Part shown: positions 1 through 21,625 of the stretch, piece by piece | Layout of the letters: every line of letters begins with the position of its first letter | How positions within the stretch are numbered: position 1 is the stretch's first letter | Assembly (NCBI GenBank): GCA_964015055.1 | Contig: CAXHBG010000002.1 | Span: 1-41,242 of the forward strand | DNA: 41,242 nt | DNA from: an uncultured Thermoplasmata archaeon | GTDB lineage: Archaea; Thermoplasmatota; Poseidoniia; MGIII; CG-Epi1 | Reading direction: 5' to 3' | Notes under the pieces: generated by a model | Database searches by the model: none | What the model was told of the DNA's origin: nothing | Seen by the model: only the letters and a program-made list of their open reading frames with translations | Made by a program: the position numbers and the translations under genes

Positions 1-1060
1 AGGTGGGTAGCAAATCCTCAAAATGGAAATTATCTTTATGGTTATATCACAGATTGGGATACTTCAGCCGTTACAGATATGTCAGGATTATTTTCTGATT
101 TCAATATGTTTAATGCCAATGTTTCAGATTGGGACACTTCCAGTGTGACAAATATGAGCAATATCTTCTCTGGAGCAACTAATTTCAATCAAGATATTTC
201 AGGTTGGGATACTTCGAGTGTAACTGACATGAGCGGGATGTTTAACGGCGCTTCGACTTTCAATCAAGACATTTCAGGTTGGGATACATCTAGTGTTACA
301 GATATGGGACATATGCTTTCTGGCGCTTACAATTTTAATCAGGATATTTCAGGTTGGGATACTTCTATCGTGACAGATATGCAAAGCATGTTCGCTTATA
401 CCAATTTCAATCCAGATATTTCAGGTTGGGGTACTTCAAGCGTAACAGATATGGGAGGGATGTTTTTCTATGCATCATATTTCAATCAAGATATTTCAGG
501 TTGGGATACCTCAAGTGTAACAGATATGGGAGGGATGTTTCATTATGCATCAGCTTTCAATCAAGATATTTCAGGTTGGGACACTTCGAGTGTCGTACAT
601 TCAGCTTTCATGTTTTATGGTGCTGTAAGTTTCAATCAGGATCTTTCAGGATGGGACACCTCAAGTGTGACTGATATGAGTTATATGTTTTCTAGTACTA
701 ACTTCAATCCAGACCTTTCAAGTTGGGATACTTCAAGCGTGACTAGCATGGAATACATGTTTTATTCTGCAGAAAGCTTTGTTAGTGACATTTCAAGTTG
801 GGATACTTCAAGCGTAACTAGCATGAAAGGGATGTTCTATCATACGAATTTCAATGGAGACATTTCTGATTGGGATGTTTCAAACGTAACAGATTTGAGT
901 TATATGTTCCGCAGCAATAGCAATTTTAATCAAGATATTTCAGGCTGGGATACATCTAGAGTAACCAAAATGTCCTACATGTTTTATGCTGCTGCCAATT
1001 TTGATCAAGATATTTCACATTGGAACGTGTCTAGTGTAGTTACGTTTGCAACTATGTTTG
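1..1060 (+). repeat. Tandem ~78-bp coding repeats (DUF285 units)
   Basis: Strings such as ttcaatcaagatatttcaggttgggatac recur at ~78-bp spacing throughout the ORF. Confidence 0.8.
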
Positions 1061-1173
1061 ACGGTGCTACTAGCTTATCAGATGATAATAAATGCAGCAT
1101 TCACAACACTTTTAACTCAAATGATTCCTGGGGTTACAATTGGTGGGGCGAGTATTGCTCCTCTGACGAGTAA
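1..1173 (+). CDS. DUF285/BspA-like 26-residue surface-repeat protein, 5' partial
   Basis: 14 tandem copies of a ~26-aa unit (consensus [20 protein letters not shown]). Frame 1 has no stop between nt 1 and the listed ATG at 79 and already encodes a repeat ([16 protein letters not shown]), so the gene starts upstream of the window. Confidence 0.8.
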
Positions 1174-9052: not shown

Positions 9053-9805
9053 TTAATTTCTTCTTTTAAAAGCAACACAGATAATGCTGATCAAAGCAAC
9101 CAACAATCCAAATCCAGGAGTATCTTCTTCATAGGTACAAGAACCATCATCCTCGGTTGCGTCGGGGTTATAATTTTCAGCACTTCGGTGAATACATCCA
9201 GGAATTTCTTCTGTAACATTTGTCGGAACGTCTTGTAATGCAGCAGGACATCCATCAGCAGAATCAAAAGGGCAAATATCTACATTATCTTTCACACCAT
9301 CGTTGTCAGAATCGTCAATACAGCCGTCAGCATTTGCATCATAGCCACTAGAATCTTCGTCTGGACATGAGTCCTCATTGTCGATAATACCATCTTTGTC
9401 CGTATCTACTGTACTTCCAACATAGAAAGACCAATTGTGATTGGCCAAAACAGTCTCATTATGATACAATGTAATGTTTGCAGAATGAGTTCCATTATCT
9501 AAATTAGTATGATTCATTTCTAAGTCAGATTCGGATTCGACTGCATTGTAGAAAGAAGGTTGCTTGTAAGCTCCAGTTTCATTATAGATAGAAACAATTG
9601 AATGCGTCCAATTAAGAGACTCATTTGTAATAACTAAAACGGAATGATGAGTCCCATTCATAGTCCATTCGAACCAGTCAGAGTCTGTTAGAATTTCAGT
9701 TTCACTGTCATTATCTTCAGATATAGCATTAGGTAGTGTGCTAATTGATAAAGCAAGTAAAATTGCAAATCCGATACCTACAGCCTTCATTTGTGCTAAT
9801 TTCAT
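9053..9805 (-). CDS. Secreted glycoprotein with thrombospondin type-3 calcium-binding repeats and a PGF-CTERM sorting signal
   Basis: Signal peptide, 11 N-x-S/T sequons, and TSP3 repeats (DTDKDGIIDNEDSCPD, DSDNDGVKDNVDICP). The C-terminal TPGFGLLVALISIICVAFKRRN is the PGF + TM + basic tripartite signal. Confidence 0.8.
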   Translation of the reverse strand: MKLAQMKAVGIGFAILLALSISTLPNAISEDNDSETEILTDSDWFEWTMNGTHHSVLVITNESLNWTHSIVSIYNETGAYKQPSFYNAVESESDLEMNHTNLDNGTHSANITLYHNETVLANHNWSFYVGSTVDTDKDGIIDNEDSCPDEDSSGYDANADGCIDDSDNDGVKDNVDICPFDSADGCPAALQDVPTNVTEEIPGCIHRSAENYNPDATEDDGSCTYEEDTPGFGLLVALISIICVAFKRRN

Positions 9806-9938: not shown

Positions 9939-12900
9939 TTATTCAGAGTTCTTGTGAAGCCAAATTGCTGTTTCCTTGATTGCTCTTCGGCTTGTGTATT
10001 GAGGAGTCCATCCATGTTTCATTAACTCTTTGATGTCTAACCTCATAAACTTAACGTCACCTTTCCAACCACGACCCCCATCAACTCCACCGGTGAAGGA
10101 ATATTCTACATCGTTTAATTTCATTGCTTTACAAACTTGATCTGCTAAAGTAATAACATCAATTGCATCTTTAGATCCAACATTAAGCGCAATCATTTCT
10201 CCTTTTTCACAAAGTTCTCCTGGAGCCATATTTAGCATTCCAGAAATACAATCTTCTACATGAAAATAAGATTTCTTTTGTTTTCCGTCGCCAAGAATTT
10301 CCAAATTGTTGTTATCTTTTCGGAGTTTATTGACAAAATCAAACGTAACGCCGTGGTTACTTCTCGGACCTACGCAGTTAGCAAAGCGATAGGAAACTCC
10401 TCTGAAATCATTTTCTTTACAGTATTTTTCGATTAATTTTTCAGCATCTAGCTTACTCGTTCCATACGCAGAGATAGGCTTCAATTCAGCAGTTTCTGGG
10501 GTTGGAATTTTCTCAGCATCTCCATATACTGTTGACGTTGATGTAAATACGATATTTTCACAACCAGTTAATTTCATAGCCTCTAAAACACGCTTCGTAA
10601 CATCTACGTTTTGCTCTTGCATTACTTCAGGTTTAGTAATTCCAAGCTGAACTTCAGGATTAGCAGCTAAATGGTACACAATCTTTGCACCCTCGAGATA
10701 TCCTGCAAAGTCCTCATTTAGTAAATCAATATCAATCAATGTAATGTTTTCAATTGATTCTTCGAGGAATTCTAATTGTCCAGATGAAAAGTTATCTAAG
10801 ACAACAACTTCTTCATCTCTCTTTACTAAACGATCAACTAAGTGAGATCCAATGAAACCTGCACCTCCCGTTACAACAACTCTGCGCTTCATATTTTGCT
10901 CAGCCATAGAAACCAGTACTCCAGATTCTAGCTCGGTGGGTTTAGTATTATCTGCATAGTCAGATTTGTCGTCAGCAAAAGATCCGGCCAAAGAGCCGAA
11001 GAAGTCTCCTGTAGTTTTGGTTATATTTTTACTTGTTTTTCCTACAGCACCGAGTACAGTTCTACTTGTATCTCCTGTTACTTTCAATACGGTTCCTCCA
11101 GCGGTTCCTAGTGCACCTACACTAGCATTGATTGGAGCTCCGATGAGTCCTTCTTTGTGAAGACCAAGAGTTTGTGAAACGCCTCCAATAGTTTGTGAAA
11201 CATCTTCCAACTTGATTTCTTCCCAATGTTGGTACAAATAATAGATAACAAGACATAGCCCAATAAACATTACAGTTACTGCAATTTGTAGAGGAGCTAA
11301 GATAGCTAAGACACCCAATCCATAAACGACAGATGCAGACAATATCAATGAGCCACTTATAGCTCCAATCGCAACTGCAGATAAATTTCTATTTGGTGAT
11401 AAACCAATTGCCCTTCCCAAGATGGTACCTCCGACAGCACCAGACCCTTGGAAAGGAAACATAACAAAAACAACAATACCGACAAAAGAAGCCCTCTCTA
11501 ACCAAGGTAAATCTTTCAACATAGCTTTTCCCTTTATCTGTATACGATTTATTCCACTACCTATGAAGGGTATTTTCTTCGCCAAGTCAAAGTTCCAAGT
11601 TAGGAAAACACCTACTGCAATATCGACAAATGCTGTACAGATTGCAATAGCCCAAGGATCAACTCCACCTGCAATTCCAAGCGGAACAACAGTGCCTTTA
11701 CCAAACGGTGGAACAAAATAAACAAGCATAAGTTGAGAAAGAATTAGGAATTCTCTCTGCCCCATACTCAAGAACATTACAACAAAAAAAGCTCCAGTCA
11801 TAATGAATGGTGAAAGAAACTTGAAAAGTCCCAGCATTGCGCTAGGTCCACCGATAGCATATATCAGAATTCCAAGACCCAATACTGCAATACAATCAAA
11901 TGCAATATTCCACCAAAAAGTAATATCAATATCTTTTGAATCAGAATAAATGTATTCATAATTTAAATTTACTGATAAGTTCCCTGAATTTAATTTTTGA
12001 AAACCTTGACCAGTTACACTTCCAGTCTCCCAACCACCGAATGTCGGAGCAGTTCCAGCAGCTAATCCGCCCAATTTTACTTTAGCATTTCCAAAATAAA
12101 GATGAGCTCCGGCTGCGTATTCATCTTCGACATTTCCTCCTACGACTACAATAGCTTCTCCAAGCTCAATAAATGTATGATCAAAAGTTGAAGTAAGAGG
12201 AACGTCGAAATTATAGTTTATTTTTGAGTCTATGAGATAAAAATCATTGACCTCCAAAGCTCTGAATATAACAACATCCATAGAACTTCGTTGAAATATA
12301 CCATCATTTAGTGATGATTGAGACCACTTAGTTCCTGTAATCTCAGTTTTATCAAAAGTAATAGATGTAAAAGTAGAACTTCGAACTAAAAAAGTATCCA
12401 AAACACTCTTTTCGATTCTGCTGGAATCCATATTTACGTTATTGAATAGTACAGCGTTGAATGTCACATTAGACATGACAGATTTACTAAAGTCCACATC
12501 ATTGAAAGTAACTCTTTCAAATTCGCAGTCAATGAAGAAAGAGTCTGTAAATGAATAATCGGAAAATAAGACATCCGTAAATTTTACGTTGGTGAAAACG
12601 GCTGCGGTTAAGTCAGTATCATTGAAATGTACTCTTTGGAATTCCAATCCGCTGGCAAAATTAATATTCATTTCACTATTATTTTCAGAAAGTACCGGAA
12701 ACAATGATTCAGTAGTTCCAGGTTGTAAAATTTTAAAGCTGTCTCCAGGTGCAACAGCAGGATCTAAACCACTGGGAGGAATAGGATATAATCCATTTTC
12801 AATATCTCCATAGTATCTAATATCAGTTAATTTCCCTTCGATTCTAATTTCATCTCCAGAAGAATATTCTAGATATTGCCGATTATTGAATACAGGGTCA

Positions 12901-13307
12901 AAAGAAGCTTCTAAATCTTCAGGATTTTCAGTAATAGCGTACCAAATTCCAGACTGTTCAACACCAACCAATTCTTGGCCATAGCCAGAAAATGTTACGC
13001 CGATTAATCCAATGAAAATGCCAGTTAACAAAATAGGTCTTGCATTTTTCCAAGAATTTTTTAGAGCTCCCACGAAAGCCCATAAGGTATCCATGACTGC
13101 ATCAATTTCATCTCTTTCTCTTTGACTGACAGTTAGCTTTCCTTTTTTCCTAGGGGTATCTAATTTTGTTTGTTTAGTGGTAGTTTTTTTCTTTTCTATA
13201 TCTTTTTTTGTAGTATTTTTCTTGGGCGTTGCTTTTCTTTTGGCAGGAGATTTCTCAGGCGTACCTTTCTTAAACGCCGTCTCTTTTTTCACAGATTTCT
13301 TTGCCAT
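9939..13307 (-). CDS. Multidomain fusion ORF: Lys-rich N-tail, TM, pentapeptide-repeat beta-helix, polytopic membrane domain (COG2426/small-multidrug-export-like), C-terminal NAD-dependent sugar epimerase/dehydratase
   Basis: Uninterrupted 1122-codon frame. aa 223-362 form 28 consecutive 5-residue repeats with F/L/M/I/V/W at the first position. aa ~463-692 contain about seven hydrophobic helices. aa 801-1122 are a complete SDR epimerase (VTGGAGFIGSHL, YGTSKLDAE). Confidence 0.75.
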   Translation of the reverse strand: MAKKSVKKETAFKKGTPEKSPAKRKATPKKNTTKKDIEKKKTTTKQTKLDTPRKKGKLTVSQRERDEIDAVMDTLWAFVGALKNSWKNARPILLTGIFIGLIGVTFSGYGQELVGVEQSGIWYAITENPEDLEASFDPVFNNRQYLEYSSGDEIRIEGKLTDIRYYGDIENGLYPIPPSGLDPAVAPGDSFKILQPGTTESLFPVLSENNSEMNINFASGLEFQRVHFNDTDLTAAVFTNVKFTDVLFSDYSFTDSFFIDCEFERVTFNDVDFSKSVMSNVTFNAVLFNNVNMDSSRIEKSVLDTFLVRSSTFTSITFDKTEITGTKWSQSSLNDGIFQRSSMDVVIFRALEVNDFYLIDSKINYNFDVPLTSTFDHTFIELGEAIVVVGGNVEDEYAAGAHLYFGNAKVKLGGLAAGTAPTFGGWETGSVTGQGFQKLNSGNLSVNLNYEYIYSDSKDIDITFWWNIAFDCIAVLGLGILIYAIGGPSAMLGLFKFLSPFIMTGAFFVVMFLSMGQREFLILSQLMLVYFVPPFGKGTVVPLGIAGGVDPWAIAICTAFVDIAVGVFLTWNFDLAKKIPFIGSGINRIQIKGKAMLKDLPWLERASFVGIVVFVMFPFQGSGAVGGTILGRAIGLSPNRNLSAVAIGAISGSLILSASVVYGLGVLAILAPLQIAVTVMFIGLCLVIYYLYQHWEEIKLEDVSQTIGGVSQTLGLHKEGLIGAPINASVGALGTAGGTVLKVTGDTSRTVLGAVGKTSKNITKTTGDFFGSLAGSFADDKSDYADNTKPTELESGVLVSMAEQNMKRRVVVTGGAGFIGSHLVDRLVKRDEEVVVLDNFSSGQLEFLEESIENITLIDIDLLNEDFAGYLEGAKIVYHLAANPEVQLGITKPEVMQEQNVDVTKRVLEAMKLTGCENIVFTSTSTVYGDAEKIPTPETAELKPISAYGTSKLDAEKLIEKYCKENDFRGVSYRFANCVGPRSNHGVTFDFVNKLRKDNNNLEILGDGKQKKSYFHVEDCISGMLNMAPGELCEKGEMIALNVGSKDAIDVITLADQVCKAMKLNDVEYSFTGGVDGGRGWKGDVKFMRLDIKELMKHGWTPQYTSRRAIKETAIWLHKNSE

Positions 13308-13360
13308 AATTTAGTAAGCCTTCGGAGCCTATATTCCAGACTAATAAATAATATCGTTTG

Positions 13361-13567
13361 TTATCCACCAGAAGCTACTAGAATAATTCTAATTGGTTTT
13401 TCAGGTAAGGCTGTGACTAAGGGAATAGGTTTCATTTTCTCTTCATCAGTGACAACCAAAACACCATCGGGATGTAAATTCAAATAATTGACAAGATCAT
13501 TAGCTGTACTTCCTTCAGGTAAATCTATAGCTTCTATTTTGTCATCGATTGTAACTTGCCATTCCAT
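13361..13567 (-). CDS. ThiS/MoaD-family ubiquitin-like small protein (SAMP-like) with C-terminal Gly-Gly
   Basis: 68 aa with a beta-grasp-like pattern. It ends ...ILVASGG immediately before the stop codon. Confidence 0.7.
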   Translation of the reverse strand: MEWQVTIDDKIEAIDLPEGSTANDLVNYLNLHPDGVLVVTDEEKMKPIPLVTALPEKPIRIILVASGG

Positions 13568-13895: not shown

Positions 13896-13975
13896 CGATT
13901 ACAATCCGAGGATCTATATTTAAATTTTATAAAAAATTATTCTACGCCAAAATTTGATTTAAAATTTAATATGAG

Positions 13976-14317
13976 TCACGGCAGGACGGGGAAGTCGTCA
14001 TCATCTTCGTCATCGTCATCGTCGTCATCATCATCATCGTCATCGTCATCATCCTCATCATCTTCGTCTTCATCTTCTTCATCTTCGTCTTCATCTTCTT
14101 CATCTTCGTCATCATCTTCGTCTTCATCATCATCGTCATCATCATCTTCGTCATCTTCATCATCATCTTCGTCATCTTCATCGTCATCATCTTCATCGTC
14201 TTCTATGACTGCGTCTGGGACTTCTTCATTATTAGTATTCTCAGCGAATAAATCACTATTAAACCCTGCAAAAGCTCCTAAAATCAGCATTAAAAAAATA
14301 GCATAGTATTTATTCAC
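13976..14317 (-). CDS. Secreted poly-acidic protein (signal peptide + 70 consecutive Asp/Glu)
   Basis: GTG start and signal-like MNKYYAIFLMLILGAFAGFNS. An unbroken run of 70 D/E follows, ending in FPVLP. It is the only one of three overlapping frames with a sensible N-terminus and an upstream TATA box. Confidence 0.55.
   Translation of the reverse strand: MNKYYAIFLMLILGAFAGFNSDLFAENTNNEEVPDAVIEDDEDDDDEDDEDDDEDDEDDDDDDDEDEDDDEDEEDEDEDEEDEDEDDEDDDDDDDDDDDDDDDEDDDDFPVLP
13994..14213. repeat. Imperfect GAY/GAR trinucleotide low-complexity tract
   Basis: About 220 bp of (tca/tcg/tct)n on the plus strand, equal to (gat/gac/gaa/gag)n on the minus strand. All three overlapping track ORFs derive from it. 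Confidence 0.9.
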
Positions 14318-14584: not shown

Positions 14585-15595
14585 CTAGTAGTCTATCTGA
14601 CCGTAGTACCTAAACATTTTTTTACCAATTGGGATTTCACTTTGGAAATTTCTCACGTCCTCTGTGGATATTTCACCCATTGCTAGTTTTAGTGATAAAT
14701 AAGGAGCACAATAGTTCTCTCCGTATATGTATGTCGAAACGCGAGGGTTAATTTCCATCAATATTCCGCCTCTGGTTGATATATCAATACAATAATCCAT
14801 CGGAAGGTGAGTCAACAATTTTTTAGCGTATTCAAGGGCGTTATTGTCTTCAATCATTTCAAATCCCATCGCCAAGCCGGAAGCGAAATTTAACCTATTT
14901 TTAACGGAACAAGTTAGCATGTCACCATCTTTAAGGACTGGATCAATCTTCAACTCCACACCATCTAAATATTCCATTACCATTAGTTCAGGAATTTCTC
15001 TCTCACCGACAGTAGATTTTAGCTCATCCATTGATATATATTTTGCAAAAGGCCTTCCATCAAACAAAAGCTCGTACCTGTTAGATTTTTCGGTCATAAC
15101 TCTTACTCCTCGAGCACCCTTTCCTTCTGGAGGTTTGAATACAACGTCTTTTTCAGGATATCCTAATTTTTCAGCAGCTTTAACTAGTTCAGCCAATGTT
15201 TTAACCAAATAGAATTCAGGAACATCAATTTTCCCTTCAAAGTGTTTGTACATTAGATACTTATTTTCACAAATGGCTACTAGTTCATGTTTTGATGCTA
15301 ATAGTCTACAGTGTTTTTCAATTTCCTTGGCGGATTTCGAAAGATAAAACATCTCCCATGAAGTCTGTGGAAATACAATATCAATATTATTTTTTTTGAT
15401 CAAGTTAATTATAGAATCAACATAATTTTCTTCATAAGCCCAAGGAACAACTGCAAAATCGTCACATAGCCACCTACCGATAGCTTGCTCATTTGCATTT
15501 GTACCTAATATGAAAATATCTTTATCTTGCAATTTTAAGTTCGAAATTAAGGCATGAGCTCCAGGACATCCCACTCCCGTTAATAGAACTCTCAT
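14585..15595 (-). CDS. ATP-grasp family carboxylate-amine ligase
   Basis: Canonical ATP-grasp motifs: VVFKPPEGKGARGVRV (phosphate-binding Lys/Gly loop), MVMEYLDGVE (hinge) and ILMEINPRVS (Mg-binding E-x-N). Confidence 0.8.
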   Translation of the reverse strand: MRVLLTGVGCPGAHALISNLKLQDKDIFILGTNANEQAIGRWLCDDFAVVPWAYEENYVDSIINLIKKNNIDIVFPQTSWEMFYLSKSAKEIEKHCRLLASKHELVAICENKYLMYKHFEGKIDVPEFYLVKTLAELVKAAEKLGYPEKDVVFKPPEGKGARGVRVMTEKSNRYELLFDGRPFAKYISMDELKSTVGEREIPELMVMEYLDGVELKIDPVLKDGDMLTCSVKNRLNFASGLAMGFEMIEDNNALEYAKKLLTHLPMDYCIDISTRGGILMEINPRVSTYIYGENYCAPYLSLKLAMGEISTEDVRNFQSEIPIGKKMFRYYGQIDY

Positions 15596-16734
15596 TGTCC
15601 TTCCTCTTTCAGTAATTCATCATATACTTCGAGCATTTTTTTCTCTTGAAGTTCCCATGAGTAATTCATTTTAAATGCTTTATAGCCATTTTCGCCCATT
15701 TTTTTTCTAAGATCTTTGTCGTTAGCTAAAGTAGTCAGGGCATCAGCCCAATCTTCAGTTACAAGGCCACATTCATATCTTTTAACTATTTTTTGACGAG
15801 CTTCATAGGGCCCTACAATAACCGGAACTTTGTAAGCCATGGAATCTAATAATTTCTTTGGTAAAGCATAGCCTCTCATTCTTTCATCAACATAATGTCC
15901 TACCATTAGAATATCACATGCAGCGTAGCATTCATTCATCATACTATATGGTAAAGGCCCAGTAAACTTAGCGTTAGCACCTTTTTCTAAAGCCAACTCT
16001 TCAAGTTCAGAAATCATATCTGTATATCCTGAATGTCCTTTAGGAGGCCCCCCTACAATTAAAACACTTAATGCATTAACTTTAGACGCAGCATCTAGTA
16101 TTTCTTCTAGAATAGGCTTTCTTAACCCTCCAATATAGCCTGCAACTATACCATCCAAACCGAATTTATCGTGTAAAACTGGTTCTTTGACAGTTTCCAG
16201 TAGCTCAGAATTATACAAAACAGTACCGCCACCTAATCGAAGAGCCAGTTCATCTGAAACAGTGAACATTGCATCTACAGTTCCAATTAATTTTTTCTGT
16301 TTTCTTTCATAATATTTTCCAATAAACCAGTTTTGAACACTTTCCATCATTGGCCAATCTTCATGAGAATCAAAGATAATTTTAGTACCAGTTTTATTCT
16401 TTATATTTACAGCAACATCAAGAACTTCTAAATCGTGAGCATGAACAATATCGGGTTCATACTCAATAACTTTTTCTTCAAGCTTTTTTAGAGCTTTTCT
16501 AAAACTTTTAACTTTGGAAAAGAACCCTCCTTTCAAATCTTCAAAAATTCGAACGACCTTGATTCCGTCTCTCTCAACTTCCCATTTTGTATCATATTTC
16601 TCTAATCGCCTAGACCAACAAAAAACAGTTACTTCATATCCTGCTTTGATTAGGGCTAAAGCTTCTCGATAAACTCTAGTATCTTCATTTGGAATAAGCA
16701 AATCATGACCTAAAACCATTGCAATTTTCGTCAT
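15592..16734 (-). CDS. Glycosyltransferase, GT-B fold, family 4-like
   Basis: Two Rossmann-like halves. The C-terminal half has the typical LPKKLLDSMAYKVPVIV...GLV nucleotide-sugar binding region. 4-nt overlaps with both neighbours. Confidence 0.8.
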   Translation of the reverse strand: MTKIAMVLGHDLLIPNEDTRVYREALALIKAGYEVTVFCWSRRLEKYDTKWEVERDGIKVVRIFEDLKGGFFSKVKSFRKALKKLEEKVIEYEPDIVHAHDLEVLDVAVNIKNKTGTKIIFDSHEDWPMMESVQNWFIGKYYERKQKKLIGTVDAMFTVSDELALRLGGGTVLYNSELLETVKEPVLHDKFGLDGIVAGYIGGLRKPILEEILDAASKVNALSVLIVGGPPKGHSGYTDMISELEELALEKGANAKFTGPLPYSMMNECYAACDILMVGHYVDERMRGYALPKKLLDSMAYKVPVIVGPYEARQKIVKRYECGLVTEDWADALTTLANDKDLRKKMGENGYKAFKMNYSWELQEKKMLEVYDELLKEEGQ

Positions 16735-17501
16735 AATAATTGATCTAACCTCACTTTAATCGTCTCAAATCCTTCAGCAAAAGGGCTTGATAATTGTATA
16801 CCTCTCATTTTTACTACAGATCTAAAAAATTTCTCACTAAAATAAGGGTTATGTTTTTGACTATCGTAGCAATCTAATGCTAATATTTTTTTCTTTATGT
16901 GTCTTTCTTCAAGCGGAATAAAGCAATTTAGTGAAACAGATAGATTATTCCAAGGTAATTCATATCCAAGTAAAGTACAATTTCTGAAAGCTCGTTTAGC
17001 TTCAGCCGTCACCACTCCATGATCTTGGTGAATATCAGTAGTAGTGGGAGTGAAAACTAAATCATAATCTATACTTCTAGAATGGTCGTATAGCGCTTGC
17101 AAAATTTCTTGTCTATCTCTTGGAAAAAATCTAGTATGAAAATCTAAAACTTCATGAGTAATCCCTAATATTTTACCTGAGTTTGCAGCCTCTTCAACTA
17201 AATTAGGATATCTTTCAGCCACAGCACTAAAATAAATTACATGTACTTTCCAACCTTCTTCAATAAGCTTGGCAATTGTCCCCCCACAACCTAACTCTGC
17301 ATCGTCCGTGTGAGGACTAAGGACTAGGGCTTTTTTGGCAGTATTATTCTTTAGTTTCGAACTTACAGTATTTCTTAATAGTTCGCTAATATTTTGGTTA
17401 CTACATTTAGCTTCTTCTTTGAAAGATTTCCAATTATCAGAAAATTCATCAGTTATTGTGAACAGATATTGTTCTGGTTTTTTTCCTTTCTTCCACACCA
17501 T
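16731..17501 (-). CDS. PIG-L/LmbE-family N-acetylglucosaminyl de-N-acetylase with ~55-aa N-terminal extension
   Basis: Motifs LVLSPHTDDAELGCGG and HQDH are typical of PIG-L zinc deacetylases. The extra N-terminal segment is described in the findings. Confidence 0.8.
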   Translation of the reverse strand: MVWKKGKKPEQYLFTITDEFSDNWKSFKEEAKCSNQNISELLRNTVSSKLKNNTAKKALVLSPHTDDAELGCGGTIAKLIEEGWKVHVIYFSAVAERYPNLVEEAANSGKILGITHEVLDFHTRFFPRDRQEILQALYDHSRSIDYDLVFTPTTTDIHQDHGVVTAEAKRAFRNCTLLGYELPWNNLSVSLNCFIPLEERHIKKKILALDCYDSQKHNPYFSEKFFRSVVKMRGIQLSSPFAEGFETIKVRLDQLL

Positions 17502-18107: not shown

Positions 18108-18767
18108 TTAGTTAACAATTTCAGTTGCTGAATCACTTCCACGGTTTGAGCCAATTTTTAAGACGCGCATAATTATTTGCCCGAAAGGTAATGACAATCC
18201 AGAGTAAACTAAAATCCAATGTGGTAAAATCCATAAATCATCGTCTAAACTATAATTTGGTTCCCAAGGTAAAGAGATTACTTGCAAGTCTAAGCCATTG
18301 ACAAATATTCGTAACCACATAATGATAGGTATCGCTATTATCATTGTGAAAGCCATTGGTTTCATTTGATTAGACATCATCTCACTCTGTAATAGCATAA
18401 TTTGTGGTTGCATTGCAAATAGTTTTTTCATTTTGGCTTCGTTACCGCTTTGTCTTGCTTCTCCCATTGCCTTATTGTACGCTCCCATTTTAGTTTGAAT
18501 TTCAGCCATTTTTTCCCAGTCTATAATGAAGTGGCGGATGATTGTTGTAAAGGAAATCATAATAATTCCTGCAAAGAGAAAAGTAAGTACAGGATATTGA
18601 TGGTCAAATGTTATTCTAGGCTCTAACACTGAACCAGCAGATTCTCCCATAAAATCTCTTAAATCAGGATTAATAATTATCCAAAGCATAAACATCATAG
18701 TTAGAAAAGTCCCTCCGATTGCAGGAGGTTGCACATCTTCTTCAGCATCCAATTTTTCTTCACTCAT
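18108..18767 (-). CDS. DUF106 / archaeal YidC-Oxa1-like membrane protein
   Basis: Three hydrophobic helices flank a Lys/Met-rich coiled segment (KMGAYNKAMGEARQSGNEAKMKKLFAMQPQ). It sits in the conserved position immediately downstream of adk in the archaeal secY cluster. Confidence 0.7.
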   Translation of the reverse strand: MSEEKLDAEEDVQPPAIGGTFLTMMFMLWIIINPDLRDFMGESAGSVLEPRITFDHQYPVLTFLFAGIIMISFTTIIRHFIIDWEKMAEIQTKMGAYNKAMGEARQSGNEAKMKKLFAMQPQIMLLQSEMMSNQMKPMAFTMIIAIPIIMWLRIFVNGLDLQVISLPWEPNYSLDDDLWILPHWILVYSGLSLPFGQIIMRVLKIGSNRGSDSATEIVN

Positions 18768-19300
18768 ATATTAAGAATTTGTTTGAATGCTTCAACAGCT
18801 ACTTCTATTTTATTGTCATTGTTAGGTACAAATCCAACAGTTGCTCCTGTCATAAAAGCTGCAGCAATAGCATACTCTCTGTTTATTCTCTGGTGTAAGC
18901 CGATATCGTCTTTGTCTCGAGCTCTTGAAGCGTCCTTAGTTCGCCTATTTTCAATTTCTTCAGGAAGTGCCTCAACAAGAACAATTGTATTAGGCATAAT
19001 TGCCTTAACGGTCCATTCAGGGAGCCCAGGAAGGTATCCTGAAGGTGTAAGTATTGAAGCATGAGTATCAACTATTACATTATCCATAAGACCTATTTTT
19101 TCACCAGCTTGTTTTTGCAATCTCTTTTGAACGTCAACGGGAAGTTTTCTCAAATCATCTCGATTAGAAACACCTTCTTTCTGGGCTTCTTTAAACATAG
19201 TAGTCCCAAAGTTAACAATATTATAACCAAAATCTTTTGCAGAATTCATGACGGTGCTCTTTCCAACACCAGGGACTCCAGTTACGATAACAATACTCAT
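18764..19300 (-). CDS. adk: Adenylate kinase, archaeal type
   Basis: P-loop VTGVPGVGKST plus VDTH...GYLPGLP, collinear with archaeal AdkA. Confidence 0.9.
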   Translation of the reverse strand: MSIVIVTGVPGVGKSTVMNSAKDFGYNIVNFGTTMFKEAQKEGVSNRDDLRKLPVDVQKRLQKQAGEKIGLMDNVIVDTHASILTPSGYLPGLPEWTVKAIMPNTIVLVEALPEEIENRRTKDASRARDKDDIGLHQRINREYAIAAAFMTGATVGFVPNNDNKIEVAVEAFKQILNI

Positions 19301-19301
19301 T

Positions 19302-19916
19302 TTACGGTCCTAACCTATTAGGTTTTTTTAAATTATCTGGTAGTTTACTAAAAACTGCGGGACATCCTTTTGCCATATGCCATGCAGGAACATCTTTAGT
19401 AACAACAGCACCTCCAGCAATGAATGCCCCTTTTCCAATTGTTAATCCAGGCATTATAGTTGCATTAGACCCAACAGAAACATCGTCCTCAATAGTAATG
19501 GGTTCACAATGGTATTCAGTTCTTAAAGGAATTTTATCATTTGTTAGAGATGCATTTGGACCAAGAAATACTCTATCCCCAATGACAGTTCCAGTTGGAA
19601 TATATGCTCCAGTTTGAAAACTACAATAATTCCCAATAGTACAATTATTATCTACAACAACATTGGTTCCTATTAAGCATCCGTCTCCTACAGTAGTATT
19701 TTCACGAACAAGAAAGTTATGACCAGTTCTAGTTTTTTTACCTAATTTAGCTGTAGAATATACTGACCCAGGTCTTATGATTGATCCGGCCCCAATCACA
19801 CAACCTGCAATTTCTTTAGATTCTTTTTCTAATTCTTTTGAGTGAGGATAACCAATTAAAGCATCTGAATCAATAAAACAATCATCTTCGATAATAGATT
19901 CGCCGTAAATGGGCAT
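19302..19916 (-). CDS. Left-handed beta-helix (hexapeptide-repeat) acyl/acetyltransferase
   Basis: Repeated [LIV]-G-x4 hexapeptides (IGAGSII, VGDGCLIGTNVVV, IGNYCSF, IGDRVFLG, VGSNATI, IGKGAFIAGGAVV). Confidence 0.8.
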   Translation of the reverse strand: MPIYGESIIEDDCFIDSDALIGYPHSKELEKESKEIAGCVIGAGSIIRPGSVYSTAKLGKKTRTGHNFLVRENTTVGDGCLIGTNVVVDNNCTIGNYCSFQTGAYIPTGTVIGDRVFLGPNASLTNDKIPLRTEYHCEPITIEDDVSVGSNATIMPGLTIGKGAFIAGGAVVTKDVPAWHMAKGCPAVFSKLPDNLKKPNRLGP

Positions 19917-21625
19917 TAATCCTCGCCGAAGAAACTTCGAAGAACGGGATGCATTTCCATCATTTGTTCTTTTCCAATTTGCTCATACATACGTATCATA
20001 ATCCCGACAGTAAGTAGCACCCCTGTACCAGACGACTGTCCAACAGTACCAATCATGTCGGCTCCAGCAGCTAAGAATCCAACGACAGCACCACTGAAAA
20101 CAGTAACAGTAGGAATGTATCTTTCCAAAACCTTTTCAACTATTCTTGGGTCTCTACGGAATCCTGGAATTTGCATACCTGAGCCTTGAATTTGCTTGGC
20201 TACAGCTTCAGGACCCATATTTGTCGTTTCGATCCAAAACTTAGCAAAAATAATAGATCCAAAGACCATAATGGACATGTAAATTACAATGTGGGCAACA
20301 AGCTGCCATGGTTCATGATCACCCATGTATGCACCATATTTATCTGGACTTACTAAAGGTAAGAACCAGTCTTGAAGACCAGCCAGCCGATTGACGTAGT
20401 AAGCTAAACCCATTGTTGGTACAGGGTTACTTCCGTCGGTAGTATCAAAAGCTCCCAGTCTCCAATTATGACCCAAAATAGGCCATTTTGACATACTAGG
20501 ATGAGACCAAAACAAAAGAGCAAACATGTTTACGTTTGCTAACAATGCAGCCATCAAAATTACAGGAATGTTACTTGCGTAAATTAATCTAATAGGATAT
20601 CTTCCTCTTGCTCCCCTTACTTTTCCATGGGCTAAAGGCAACTCAATCCTTGAGGATTCTACGTAAACAACAATTAGGAATACAATGAATGTTCCAATTA
20701 AAGCAACTAATGGATTAGGCGGAGCTAACAAAATAGCTTCGTAACCACCTCCACTCAAGTCTTGAGTAGATGAATTTTTAATGTACCACAAAATCATAGG
20801 AAGAGTTCCAGAAGGAGTTTCAGTACCGCTTCCTGGAGCCGGTTCCCAGTTCAAAGTTCCAGTAAATATTGCCTGAGAAACTCCAGCAGCAATGAAAAGA
20901 GAGATACCTGATCCAATACCCCATTTAGATACACTTTCATCCATCAAAAATACTAGATAAGATCCTATTGCTAATTGAGTAATAATCGTCATTCTAGCCC
21001 AAGTAAGTCCGACTTCGGCAACAAGAGAAGAGCTAGGTTCTAAGAAACCAAATACTTGTGGAACAGATTCAACGATAATCATTACAATTACCAATACTTT
21101 TTGAGTTCCTTGGTATATTTCTTTATCTCGTGGGTCTTGTAAGTTTAAGTTAATAATTTTTGCACCGGTAAATAGCTGCATGATAATGCTTCCAGTAACA
21201 ATGGGGCCAATTCCCAAGTGCATTAAACTTCCACTAGCTCCAGCTAAAATTGCACGATATTGACTGAATAAATCAATAGTTTCTCCGCCAAGACCATACA
21301 AAGCTACGTTTGTCATGGCAAAGTATACAATTAGAATTGCCAAGGTCCAGGTCATTTTTGTTCTAAAGTGTACGTGCCCTTCCGGTTTTTGTACGGTAGG
21401 CATTCTTCCAATTATCGGTTTTAGCCCGTGTAACTTTGAACCTTCACCTGAATATGAAGCTCCCATGTAAACTAGCCAAGTGATTCCGATAGTACCTAAT
21501 CCCATAAAGGTTGCAGCAGTAGTTTCGGGAGATTTCCAATTGTACCATAGCACATAGAGGAAAATCATAAACAAACAAGGCAAGATTGCCTGTGCGGGAT
21601 TTCTAGGAATATTTTCTTCAGCCAT
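19916..21625 (-). CDS. secY: Preprotein translocase subunit SecY (with ~66-aa N-terminal extension)
   Basis: Collinear with archaeal SecY from LKPIIGRMPTV onward (GIGPIVTGSIIMQL, WGIGSGISLFIAAGV, IELPLAHGKVRGARGRYPIRLIYASNIPVIL, GTGVLLTVGI). The ATG overlaps the rpl15 stop by 8 nt. Confidence 0.9.
   Translation of the reverse strand: MAEENIPRNPAQAILPCLFMIFLYVLWYNWKSPETTAATFMGLGTIGITWLVYMGASYSGEGSKLHGLKPIIGRMPTVQKPEGHVHFRTKMTWTLAILIVYFAMTNVALYGLGGETIDLFSQYRAILAGASGSLMHLGIGPIVTGSIIMQLFTGAKIINLNLQDPRDKEIYQGTQKVLVIVMIIVESVPQVFGFLEPSSSLVAEVGLTWARMTIITQLAIGSYLVFLMDESVSKWGIGSGISLFIAAGVSQAIFTGTLNWEPAPGSGTETPSGTLPMILWYIKNSSTQDLSGGGYEAILLAPPNPLVALIGTFIVFLIVVYVESSRIELPLAHGKVRGARGRYPIRLIYASNIPVILMAALLANVNMFALLFWSHPSMSKWPILGHNWRLGAFDTTDGSNPVPTMGLAYYVNRLAGLQDWFLPLVSPDKYGAYMGDHEPWQLVAHIVIYMSIMVFGSIIFAKFWIETTNMGPEAVAKQIQGSGMQIPGFRRDPRIVEKVLERYIPTVTVFSGAVVGFLAAGADMIGTVGQSSGTGVLLTVGIMIRMYEQIGKEQMMEMHPVLRSFFGED

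Follow-up and report, generated by a model that had tools for sequence, protein, structure and literature searches.

Fusion of a pentapeptide-repeat PF06695 membrane protein to a predicted nucleotide-sugar 4-epimerase in Marine Group III archaea

A single uninterrupted ORF, free of internal stops, in the window (the whole 41,242-nucleotide stretch of archaeal DNA analysed here) encodes a genuine single polypeptide of 1122 aa from Marine Group III (MGIII) archaea, in which a Lys-rich tail, a TM helix, approximately 29 pentapeptide repeats, a PF06695 domain, a Gly/Thr-rich linker and a GalE-type epimerase follow one another (Table 1). The gene is a lineage-specific fusion of two adjacent genes from an older archaeal cassette, since the cassette is still found unfused in more distant Thermoplasmatota. 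The pentapeptide, PF06695 and epimerase (PF01370) assignments all pass the curated Pfam cut-offs, which bears out a reading made from the sequence alone that had proposed both the single-ORF fusion and these domains. That sequence-only reading knew of no described protein with this architecture, and we likewise found no published description in the literature searched; the same architecture is already present in NCBI, labelled merely as 'NAD-dependent epimerase/dehydratase family protein'.

Table 1. Features of the fusion gene and its upstream region, with positions in the window
Feature	Residues	Position	Strand	Basis
Whole fusion ORF, stop codon included	1122 aa	9939..13307	(-)	full length kept in 47 clusters and 26 genome loci
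Lys-rich, predicted disordered cytoplasmic tail	1-57	13137..13307	(-)	40% K/R, pLDDT ~26, family net charge +10
Conserved juxtamembrane helix	58-89	13041..13136	(-)	motif VSQRERDEIDAV.D..W.F; invariant S61, E64, D66-V71, D73
TM helix 1, predicted inside to outside	90-110	12978..13040	(-)	hydropathy; helix in both models
Acidic, predicted extracellular module with β-rich caps either side of the β-helix	111-462	11922..12977	(-)	charge -33, sequons, pLDDT ~75-98
~29 pentapeptide repeats; predicted ~7-coil right-handed quadrilateral β-helix	216-366	12210..12662	(-)	Pfam, register, model, Foldseek
PF06695 ('Sm_multidrug_ex', DedA-superfamily by published profile analyses) membrane domain	463-694	11226..11921	(-)	Pfam, models, invariant columns
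Conserved Gly/Thr/Lys-rich linker	695-805	10893..11225	(-)	11/3 (11-mer) periodicity, in-frame indels, pLDDT ~20
Putative NAD-dependent NDP-hexose 4-epimerase, archaeal GDP-Gal4E subgroup	806-1122	9942..10892	(-)	PF01370, PhGal4E_1 alignment
Intergenic region with conserved ATATTATTTATTAG element ~38 nt upstream of the ATG		13308..13360	(-)	conserved in all MGIII loci aligned
Ubiquitin-like (SAMP2-like) gene ending ASGG, first in the cassette	68 aa	13361..13567	(-)	conserved upstream of the fusion gene

The domains of the fusion are shared by 47 full-length protein clusters with 53-95% identity, the closest of which contains 297 member sequences. Among 26 species-representative loci of Poseidoniia/MGIII, drawn from MAGs and single-cell genomes of many studies and with identity down to 42%, every ORF uncut by contig ends is 1097-1146 aa long with the epimerase attached, and no stop separating the epimerase from the membrane domain was found at any MGIII locus examined. 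The distant Thermoplasmatota relatives instead possess a split cassette, in which a ubiquitin-like (Ubl) gene ending ASGG is followed by a PF06695 gene and a separate epimerase gene. The latter two follow each other directly at L027, L028, L029, L033, L034, L036/L037, L038, L040 and L043, and their junctions abut or, in several cases, overlap by 4 nt. The sequence-only reading had named such stops in orthologues as evidence against the fusion; they do occur, but as natural split forms and not as the sign of an error in the window. The epimerases of the split loci are 45-63% identical to the fused epimerase domain; for L027-L029, the membrane parts share 44-45% identity with that of the fused protein. 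An adjacent epimerase is absent at four PF06695 relatives (L030, L031, L032 and L035), and the P. furiosus orthologue of the characterised Pyrococcus epimerase has no PF06695 neighbour. The pentapeptide ectodomain is present in some of the PF06695 proteins of split cassettes and absent in others. Taken together, the loci document a stepwise accretion of domains, from the core pair through addition of the ectodomain to the fusion.

The tail contains 21 K and 2 R, matching the Lys/Arg content first estimated for it. The adjoining juxtamembrane helix, modelled at pLDDT ~90, is also found in the unfused relatives P0066 and P0067, and the hydrophobic helix that follows agrees with the TM segment originally placed at aa 91-110. 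The net charge of the tail is +10 as opposed to -33 for the segment 111-462, which carries ~1.9 N-x-S/T sequons per 100 aa (7 observed, 4.6 expected) versus 0.3-0.7 elsewhere. Because of this charge and sequon bias the topology first proposed, with the basic tail and the epimerase in the cytoplasm and the pentapeptide helix outside, is predicted to hold.

Within the repeat region the 5-residue register, with a central F/L/M/I, is unbroken over aa ~221-365. The region is matched by the Pfam models PF13599 (Pentapeptide_4; 48-54 bits vs GA 38), PF00805 (26.7-29 bits vs GA 20.2), PF13576 and PF23894, and its Pfam matches include LD_SV2. AlphaFold2 gives a β-helix here at pLDDT 90-98, and the 34 Foldseek matches in the PDB with E <= 1e-3 are all either pentapeptide-repeat proteins found in nature or engineered repeat solenoids, the top ones being pentapeptide-repeat proteins throughout, including MfpA, AlbG, Qnr, the lumenal Rfr proteins and SV2B. 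By these sequence and fold criteria the region belongs to the pentapeptide-repeat (Rfr fold) proteins. The quadrilateral β-helix of about seven turns that had been envisaged is in agreement with both the model and the structural matches; of the 28 repeats originally counted at aa 223-362 (nt 12222-12641), the coordinates and the unbroken register stand, while the count is closer to 29 and the run slightly longer.

PF06695 (COG2426) is matched at aa 540-654 with 43.9-45 bits (GA 30.7), as well as in 120 of 120 aligned relatives, in line with the resemblance to the COG2426/small-multidrug-export family noticed earlier. The 'multidrug export' of the family name is an annotation only. Clustering at 50% leaves more than 3,000 representatives of the family in the search made here, and it occurs in archaea, bacteria and chloroplast-bearing eukaryotes. 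The confident model of the domain (pLDDT 90.7) displays two Pro/Gly-tipped helical hairpins with a TM helix after each: a TM pair (464-485/490-514) leads into hairpin 517-546, with the tip VPPFGKG (invariant P533, P534, G536 and K537), then a TM helix (551-577), an amphipathic K/R-rich helix (580-599), hairpin 601-633, with the tip FPFQGSG (invariant P618, F619, Q620, G621, S622 and G623), and a second TM pair (638-661/665-693). The approximately seven plain helices first read at aa ~463-692 do form a polytopic membrane domain, but the models resolve them into four to five TM helices, two helix-Pro/Gly-helix hairpins and one amphipathic helix, and the earlier total of eight TM helices for the protein is wrong in detail. 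Residues 464-514 and 638-693 each come out of AlphaFold as one long helix, so that the chain may cross the membrane either 4 or 6 times, the parity being certain. An internal-repeat sequence test pairs the two hairpin tips, with a score of 11 that falls inside the shuffled range of 7-13.

Published profile analyses place PF06695 as a branch of the DedA superfamily with two re-entrant loops, with HHpred/HHsearch probabilities of 98-99% between PF09335 members and PF06695. The DedA core is characterised by a conserved Pro at the turn of both loops and a TM helix after each, which makes a pseudo-inverted repeat. The superfamily includes undecaprenyl-phosphate (UndP) and phospholipid flippases, and ion-coupled transporter-like folds have also been proposed in the DedA literature. 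None of the 120 PF06695 relatives has PF09335, the DedA model, among its listed Pfam matches, and hhalign against five E. coli DedA paralogs yielded a probability below 3%, the same as controls, the five-sequence profile being too thin to decide the matter.

The first half of the linker is the C-terminal tail already present in unfused relatives. Its autocorrelation peaks at lags 4, 8, 11, 15, 19 and 22; homologs share many invariant residues, and all their indels are in frame, several of them being exactly 11 aa. It is predicted to be a flexible or membrane-surface tether. The epimerase that it carries, the best-conserved portion of the fusion protein, matches PF01370 with 166 bits at aa 810-1028 (GDP_Man_Dehyd spans 812-1112), versus just 45 bits for PF02719, and misses the cut-off of the NCBIfam bacterial galE equivalog (137 vs 262 bits). 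Its full length aligns with that of solved archaeal 4-epimerases (E = 2e-85 for 8RDG, 2e-84 for 3EHE and 3e-76 for 3ICP), as befits the complete NAD-dependent epimerase/dehydratase originally delimited at aa 801-1122. Across the whole domain it is 49% identical to PhGal4E_1 (8RDG), with which it shares the motifs GGAGFIGSH, STVYG, PISxYGxSK, HLAANPEV, RSNHGV, GGRGWKGDV and FTGGVDGGRGWKGDV. The NAD-binding GxxGxxG corresponds to GGAGFIGSH at 814-822, STSTVYG lies at 923-929, and the catalytic Tyr-x3-Lys (Y948-G-T-S-K952) aligns with Y145-x3-K of PhGal4E_1. The GDP-Gal4E subgroup of PhGal4E_1 has been shown biochemically to be a promiscuous GDP/UDP-sugar 4-epimerase (PMC12171764). Judged by these residues, the SDR domain is an active-looking NAD-dependent NDP-hexose 4-epimerase with a presumed GDP- or UDP-sugar substrate.

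From the above we infer the substrate of the epimerase, a transport activity, the coupling of the two and the role of the β-helix as follows. The Lys-rich tail and the juxtamembrane helix would be cytoplasmic, and TM1 would lead out to the ~350-aa acidic module around the 7-coil β-helix; the chain would then re-enter the membrane as the PF06695 core, with its two hairpins dipping into the membrane, and end in the cytoplasm with the ~110-aa tether and the epimerase. The latter would produce a 4-epimerised GDP- or UDP-sugar directly at the inner membrane face to supply a lipid-linked sugar pathway, whose product would be a glycolipid or else a sugar or glycan linked to dolichyl phosphate. What the PF06695 core may move across the membrane is either the lipid intermediate or the polyprenyl-phosphate carrier once it is spent, and the rigid external β-helix would act at the cell surface, to keep distance or to offer a platform for docking. 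We would give about an even chance to this best explanation, in which a nucleotide sugar is epimerised at the inner face of the membrane in a step coupled to the translocation of a lipid-linked sugar or carrier. The coupling of nucleotide-sugar modification to an export or flipping step, suggested by the sequence-only reading, is strengthened by the published DedA placement and by the PF06695-epimerase adjacency in unfused relatives, although the coupling itself stays presumptive. A more specific version, which we put forward tentatively, is that PF06695 might be an archaeal lipid-linked-sugar/dolichyl-phosphate translocator complexed with a GDP/UDP-hexose 4-epimerase, non-covalently in most Thermoplasmatota and covalently in MGIII, maybe with the Ubl as a third partner, and that the β-helix added in MGIII hands the lipid-linked sugar to the surface layer or spaces the machine from it.

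The two genes might also have been joined neutrally, through loss of the stop between coupled genes in the MGIII ancestor, which would leave an ordinary GalE, serving the general supply of sugar nucleotides, tethered to a PF06695 protein doing an unrelated job such as ion-coupled transport of a small solute (ion-coupled transporter-like folds being among those proposed in the DedA literature) or membrane homeostasis. Split forms occur widely, the 4-nt gene overlap makes such a stop loss easy, and the linker is a long stretch with predicted disorder. The surroundings of the cassette are housekeeping genes (fibrillarin, the SecY/ribosomal operon, a tRNA synthetase), not a variable glycan island, and its conserved core contains neither a GT, lipid-sugar synthases (GT2/DPM-like) included, nor AglB. 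In favour of the coupled reading, GT4, PIG-L and ATP-grasp genes are found upstream in close relatives, and PGF-CTERM or giant surface-protein genes adjoin the cassette; against it, glycosylation-type neighbours are conserved among close relatives only. Nevertheless, we consider a neutral origin unlikely: the same gene pair stays adjacent in archaea that diverged deeply and whose other neighbouring genes differ, the tail that became the linker is conserved in sequence both before and after fusion, and the fusion is kept down to 42% identity.

It is improbable that the role of the SDR domain is regulatory, with NAD(H) or nucleotide sugars sensed to gate the membrane domain, and not that of a metabolic enzyme. 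Rossmann/SDR-like domains (e.g. NmrA-like) can indeed sense, a weak NmrA match is present here, and where PhGal4E_1 has R83 in its pocket, the fused clade, and it alone, has an invariant Gln (Q887). However, the GxxGxxG, the catalytic Tyr-x3-Lys, RSNHGV and GGRGWKGDV are all kept in a domain that is 49% identical overall to an active enzyme and is the most conserved region of the protein.

No neighbour is more constant than the Ubl gene, which is present upstream at every locus with upstream DNA and also at the split loci L033, L034, L036 and L040, and eight orthologues share an invariant HPDGxLV...ASGG. A ubiquitin-like (SAMP) system could be primary, with the ASGG protein modifying the membrane protein, for instance on its tail (21 Lys within 57 aa), or serving as its sulfur carrier. 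A ThiF/E1-like gene near L035, the sole pentapeptide-PF06695 gene without an adjacent epimerase, and a weak signal for Pfam SAMP2 (PF21965; also flagged weak for the L033 orthologue) point in this direction, but that score is sub-threshold (16.7 bits, E = 0.01, GA 27), and unfused relatives such as P0097 have the Ubl gene and no Lys-rich tail. Furthermore, Ubl genes are housekeeping genes that may be syntenic by descent, and the conserved promoter-like element ATATTATTTATTAG, a candidate archaeal TATA/BRE promoter or else an oligo-T terminator of the upstream gene, lies between the Ubl and fusion genes. We regard a primary role of this system as very improbable.

An assembly or gene-calling artefact, or an epimerase normally made separately from the ATG at 10907 or 10892 as the sequence-only reading had allowed, recalls the separate genes of distant relatives but is largely refuted, as these internal methionines are not conserved (M806 is unique to the window sequence and M801 varies as M/V/L/T/P among homologs), MGIII loci have no stops, and the same uninterrupted ORF recurs in MAGs and single-cell genomes that many studies obtained independently, with 297 members in the closest cluster.

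The fusion and approximately nine independent split cassettes tie PF06695 to a biochemically characterised 4-epimerase subgroup, which is a first functional clue for PF06695 and provides both a concrete hypothesis that can be tested and, for biochemistry, a construct that nature has 'pre-assembled'. The literature counts flippases for lipid-linked sugars and polyprenyl-phosphate carriers among the last enzymes of glycoconjugate pathways still to be identified, and the flippase field accepts gene fusions and synteny as leads. If the translocator complex tentatively proposed above is real, one missing polyprenyl-phosphate/glycolipid flippase would be identified, along with the first function for PF06695. 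The protein also appears to be an archaeal case of an extracytoplasmic pentapeptide β-helix inserted in a transporter-like protein, analogous to SV2.

Among known systems, the bacterial DedA polyprenyl-phosphate flippases (UptA/YngC, PA4029) are, going by published profile analyses, related to the MGIII protein through a membrane core of one superfamily. In contrast to these, the archaeal protein belongs to the PF06695 branch, which has no characterised member, rather than to PF09335, lacks the DedA motifs and bears a large extracellular insertion. DedA-PAP2 fusions and synteny with lipid-carrier-pathway enzymes are taken as functional evidence in the DedA literature; the partner here is a cytoplasmic nucleotide-sugar epimerase and not a phosphatase. 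The epimerase shares its catalytic and nucleotide-binding motifs with PhGal4E_1 of Pyrococcus horikoshii and the GDP-Gal4E subgroup (8RDG/8RDH, 3EHE, 3AW9), but these are soluble stand-alone homodimers, whereas here it is membrane-tethered and has the R83 to Gln change. SV2A/B/C and the lumenal cyanobacterial Rfr proteins (Foldseek matches 9F1R, 2G0Y and 2F3L) likewise hold a pentapeptide β-helix on the non-cytoplasmic side, and SV2 is polytopic and transporter-like; however, it is an MFS transporter with an unrelated membrane domain and no enzyme domain. PglF/WbpM/CapD (PF02719) hold a nucleotide-sugar-modifying SDR at the cytoplasmic membrane face through N-terminal TM helices in surface-glycan pathways, but are 4,6-dehydratases of another SDR subfamily with a simple TM anchor and no transporter-like core or ectodomain. 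HglK of Anabaena, needed for the localisation of heterocyst glycolipids, is bacterial and lacks PF06695 and epimerase domains, yet by description it resembles the MGIII protein in combining TM helices with pentapeptide repeats.

The fusion gene (window 9939-13307, minus strand) is free of internal stops and forms one ORF of 1122 aa, in which Lys and Arg make up 40% of residues 1-57, a hydrophobic helix lies at about aa 90-110, and the central F/L/M/I residues of the pentapeptide repeats keep their 5-residue register without a break from aa ~221 to 365. Re-reading of the ORF and Pfam searches bore out the coordinates that a sequence-only reading had assigned to the gene and its parts, and its three domain assignments, pentapeptide, PF06695 (Sm_multidrug_ex) and epimerase, each pass the curated Pfam cut-off. 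The NCBIfam model of the Hailong effector HalA also matches, at 37 bits where its cut-off is 250 bits; this match is due to the pentapeptide repeats only and was discarded. A search of 5.8 billion proteins recovered 47 clusters of full-length proteins, 1087-1188 aa long and 53-95% identical, each with the same three domains, the closest comprising 297 member sequences; NCBI names the copies only as 'NAD-dependent epimerase/dehydratase family protein [Candidatus Thermoplasmatota archaeon]'. With aa 60-800, the part of the protein outside the epimerase, as query, a scan of 185,579 species-representative genomes yielded 26 loci in Poseidoniia, including the single-cell genomes AG-343-J07, AG-343-N02 and AH-321-L02; the top match, at 97% identity, is in Marine Group III (MGIII) CG-Epi1, which assigns the window to MGIII. 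At these loci all ORFs uncut by a contig end are 1097-1146 aa long and include the epimerase, down to 42-47% identity; the proposed single-ORF fusion is thus upheld by both sets.

Features of the fusion protein, its upstream region and related loci (aa, residues of the fusion protein; nt, window positions unless a locus handle, L027-L044, is given; P0066 and the like denote relative proteins)
Feature	Position	Strand	Basis or remark
Juxtamembrane helix	aa 63-88		model; highly conserved
β-helix with flanking β-rich caps	β-helix aa 216-366		model; after TM1
Membrane helices	aa 464-485/490-514		models
First hairpin, tip VPPFGKG	aa 517-546		models
TM helix	aa 551-577		models
Amphipathic K/R-rich helix	aa 580-599		models
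Second hairpin, tip FPFQGSG	aa 601-633		models
Membrane helices	aa 638-661/665-693		models
Linker	aa 695-805 (nt 10893-11225)	-	pLDDT about 20 (first model)
Pentapeptide_4			Pfam, 48 bits; curated cut-off 38
Sm_multidrug_ex (PF06695)	aa 540-654		Pfam, 43.9 bits; curated cut-off 30.7
Epimerase (PF01370)	aa 810-1028		Pfam, 166 bits, above curated cut-off
GDP_Man_Dehyd	aa 812-1112		Pfam, above curated cut-off
68-aa ubiquitin-like (Ubl) ORF ending ASGG	nt 13361-13567	-	67-93% identity; at every fusion locus with upstream DNA
53-nt spacer with conserved ATATTATTTATTAG	nt 13308-13360	-	all MGIII loci; directly past Ubl stop codon
Split pairs	L027, L028, L029		Thermoplasmata; PF06695 gene of 268-301 aa, then separate ~320-aa epimerase gene, overlapping or abutting
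P0066 locus	L033		80-aa SAMP2-like ORF, P0066, epimerase (4-nt overlap)
P0072 locus	L034		fibrillarin, 71-aa ORF, P0072, epimerase 12 nt on
P0067 loci	L036/L037		76-aa ORF, P0067, epimerase
P0113 locus	L038		P0113, epimerase
P0097 locus	L040		68-aa ORF, P0097 (281 aa), epimerase (4-nt overlap)
P0186 locus	L043		P0186, epimerase (4-nt overlap)
171-aa unannotated polytopic membrane ORF	L044 3480-3995		5 nt before P. furiosus orthologue of PhGal4E_1; ends MoxR/DUF58 operon

When AlphaFold was first run on the full length, from 25 close homologs, the mean pLDDT was 55 and the β-helix alone was usable; a deeper alignment of 120 sequences gave a model of aa 60-700 with a pLDDT of 90.7 and a pTM of 0.78. 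In this better model 464-514 and 638-693 are single long helices, each with an invariant Gly/Pro turn (GGPS and YGLG). Its significant Foldseek matches in the PDB are natural pentapeptide-repeat proteins, lumenal Rfr proteins included, and engineered repeat solenoids, whereas SV2B matches the β-helix model only among hits weaker than E = 1e-3; the same search returned no match for the membrane domain. Net charge is +10 in the tail and -33 in segment 111-462, the loop 574-602 is K/R-rich, and sequons reach 1.9 per 100 aa in segment 111-462 versus 0.3-0.7 elsewhere. With four or six crossings alike, the C-terminus falls on the side of the N-terminus. Parity, charge and sequon bias therefore predict a cytoplasmic tail, linker and epimerase and an extracellular β-helix, which agrees with the sidedness proposed earlier, whereas the models replace the eight TM helices of that proposal with another number.

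The genome scan also yielded stand-alone PF06695 proteins in other archaea. In the split pairs of L027-L029 the epimerase is 48-53% and the membrane part 44-45% identical to the fusion protein. An exhaustive HMM search over 1.84 billion representatives returned 3,056 relatives at E <= 1e-3; among the best 150 of these nearly all are stand-alone proteins of 200-280 aa, and the full fusion makes up one 50%-identity cluster only. Five intermediates of 600-770 aa among the relatives listed (P0066, P0067, P0071-73) combine the tail and TM1 with the pentapeptide ectodomain and the PF06695 core, and lack the epimerase. An adjacent epimerase is absent at four of the PF06695 loci inspected (L030, L031, L032, L035), and the contexts of P0079 and P0143 gave no information, as their contigs are too short. 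Unfused proteins already have, as their C-terminal tail, a counterpart of the first half of the linker seen in MGIII (…GLH.EG.IGA…AVG.TG..I[ST]K…). Together with the split and intermediate contexts, this shows that we are dealing with one cassette in three states: the core pair, the core pair with an N-terminal TM/pentapeptide ectodomain, and the full fusion of MGIII. Stop codons between membrane core and epimerase, previously named as grounds for rejecting the fusion, thus do occur in orthologous loci, but only as evolutionary split forms; the complete MGIII ORFs are fused.

Several neighbours of the cassette were also recorded. In the window, 14585-17501 (minus strand) is an overlapping operon for a de-N-acetylase of the PIG-L family, a glycosyltransferase of family GT4 and an ATP-grasp ligase, kept only in the close CG-Epi1 relatives L001, L002, L007 and L016; by analogy with GPI-like GlcN-lipid or mycothiol/bacillithiol-type pathways, its gene logic would be GlcNAc transfer, deacetylation and amide ligation. 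The gene at 9053-9805 (minus strand) codes for a secreted protein rich in Asn and Asp; it has thrombospondin type-3-like repeats and a PGF-CTERM archaeosortase signal close to threshold, and homologues lie downstream of the fusion gene at L001, L002, L011, L016, L017, L019, L021, L023 and L024. A 113-aa ORF (13976-14317, minus strand; weak relative at L009 only) has an N-terminal hydrophobic segment and then ~80 residues of almost pure Asp/Glu, coded by a GAT/GAA-type trinucleotide-repeat tract whose opposite strand (13971-14306, plus strand) reads as poly-Ser. The region 18108-21625 (minus strand) holds an EMC3/TMCO1-like (YidC/Oxa1-type) insertase near SecY, where the ribosomal-protein operon ends, with genes for an AAA_17-domain (kinase-like) protein and a hexapeptide-repeat transferase between insertase and SecY; this proximity places the cassette in the core, housekeeping part of the genome. 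At 79-1173 (plus strand) this marine archaeon encodes a repeat protein with a strong match, at 415 bits, to DUF285 ('Mycoplasma protein of unknown function'). Next come a β-propeller-repeat protein of 1029 aa, a subtilase and a protein resembling BNR/sialidases, and the four make up a secreted-protein cluster. Elsewhere in Thermoplasmata, giant surface proteins flank the unfused pair (L028 3695-7804 and 9724-14496; L029 7241-11713), with right-handed β-helix/NosD, PKD, He_PIG, Big_9, CARDB and cadherin-like domains; these are likely to be glycosylated cell-surface proteins.

The membrane core is a member of PF06695. Two independent papers place this family in the DedA superfamily, along with TMEM41B, VMP1 and bacterial DedA, and describe a core in which two re-entrant loops, with conserved prolines, face each other; passages of the DedA literature present members as undecaprenyl-phosphate or phospholipid flippases or scramblases. 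The DedA model PF09335 is absent from the Pfam families listed for 120 relatives (scan at E <= 1), hhalign with thin profiles gave probabilities of 0.1-2.8% for five paralogs from E. coli (DedA, YabI, YdjX, YdjZ, YqjA), on a par with controls from unrelated membrane proteins, and an internal pseudo-repeat test of the core scored no higher than shuffles. As to sequence, the DedA link therefore derives from the literature, and the predicted architecture is consistent with this literature-based placement. The Haloferax 'small multidrug export protein' of the literature is EmrE (SMR family) and therefore irrelevant. Our literature search turned up no account of this architecture, of a PF06695-epimerase cassette or of any function for PF06695.

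The most likely reading, in which we place about even confidence, is that the fusion protein is a module in the membrane that serves to assemble surface glycoconjugates or glycolipids. At the inner leaflet, its tethered epimerase would provide a 4-epimerised NDP-sugar; translocation of the lipid-linked sugar, or recycling of the polyprenyl-phosphate carrier, would fall to the PF06695 core, and the β-helix might be a rigid external spacer or docking element. In its favour, close relatives have GT4, PIG-L and ATP-grasp genes upstream, and genes for PGF-CTERM or giant PKD/Ig surface proteins adjoin the cassette; against it, the conserved cassette core lacks both a lipid-sugar synthase and AglB, and the neighbourhood is housekeeping in character. 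A neutral operon collapse, leaving membrane core and epimerase with independent functions, appears rather unlikely.

The closest solved structures to the epimerase domain are PhGal4E_1 of Pyrococcus horikoshii (8RDG/8RDH/8RDI, E = 2e-85; 49% identity), A. fulgidus GalE-1 (3EHE) and P. calidifontis Gal4E (3ICP/3AW9), all of them members of an archaeal subgroup of highly promiscuous GDP-sugar 4-epimerases (PMC12171764). The domain retains GGAGFIGSH, STVYG, PISxYGxSK (with the catalytic Tyr), RSNHGV and FTGGVDGGRGWKGDV, and looks catalytically competent; the PhGal4E_1 pocket residue R83 is replaced by Gln in the fused clade only. That this SDR domain acts instead as a sensor is improbable. The PhGal4E_1 lineage does not share the cassette, as the membrane ORF preceding the P. 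furiosus orthologue is unrelated to PF06695.

The Ubl ORF also heads split loci and is the steadiest neighbour of the PF06695 gene, fused and unfused, across Thermoplasmatota. Its orthologues share HPDGxLV and the invariant C-terminal ASGG; the match to Pfam SAMP2 is sub-threshold (E = 0.01), the L033 orthologue being flagged 'weak'. The ATATTATTTATTAG element, which precedes the start codon of the fusion by about 38 nt, is most simply a candidate archaeal TATA/BRE promoter of the fusion gene, or else a putative oligo-T terminator. A system centred on this ubiquitin-like partner as the main function of the cassette seems quite improbable, and SAMPylation of the Lys-rich tail is retained only at low probability, as Ubl-linked unfused relatives lack the tail. 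P0073 (L035), the sole pentapeptide-PF06695 gene without an adjacent epimerase, has a divergent ThiF/E1-like gene close by (L035 2826-3950, minus strand), which may be another hint linking the membrane protein to a ubiquitin-like system.

The linker has an 11/3 periodicity (autocorrelation peaks at lags 4, 8, 11, 15, 19 and 22), and homologs differ by 11-aa indels. Amphipathic 11-mer repeats bind membrane surfaces in alpha-synuclein and the apolipoproteins, and the composition of the linker, with its Gly/Thr/Lys/Val-rich 11-mers, appears to resemble such repeats. Long tails similar to the linker are borne by the unfused P0113 and P0141. Across homologs every linker indel preserves the reading frame, and invariant residues are numerous; M806 is found in the window sequence alone, and the M801 position is M, V, L, T or P. 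Separate translation of the epimerase from ATG 10907 or 10892, earlier offered as an alternative, was rejected on the ground of these non-conserved Mets. Given also the conserved full-length ORFs and in-frame indels, an assembly or calling artefact or a regular internal start is very unlikely to explain the fusion.

The four domain kinds of this protein are all already known; the fusion itself is un-named in databases. Its main value lies in a gene-fusion clue that makes PF06695 function directly testable, and possibly also a missing archaeal flippase for lipid-linked sugars or their carrier. In the DedA literature, DedA-PAP2 fusions and synteny are taken as functional evidence.
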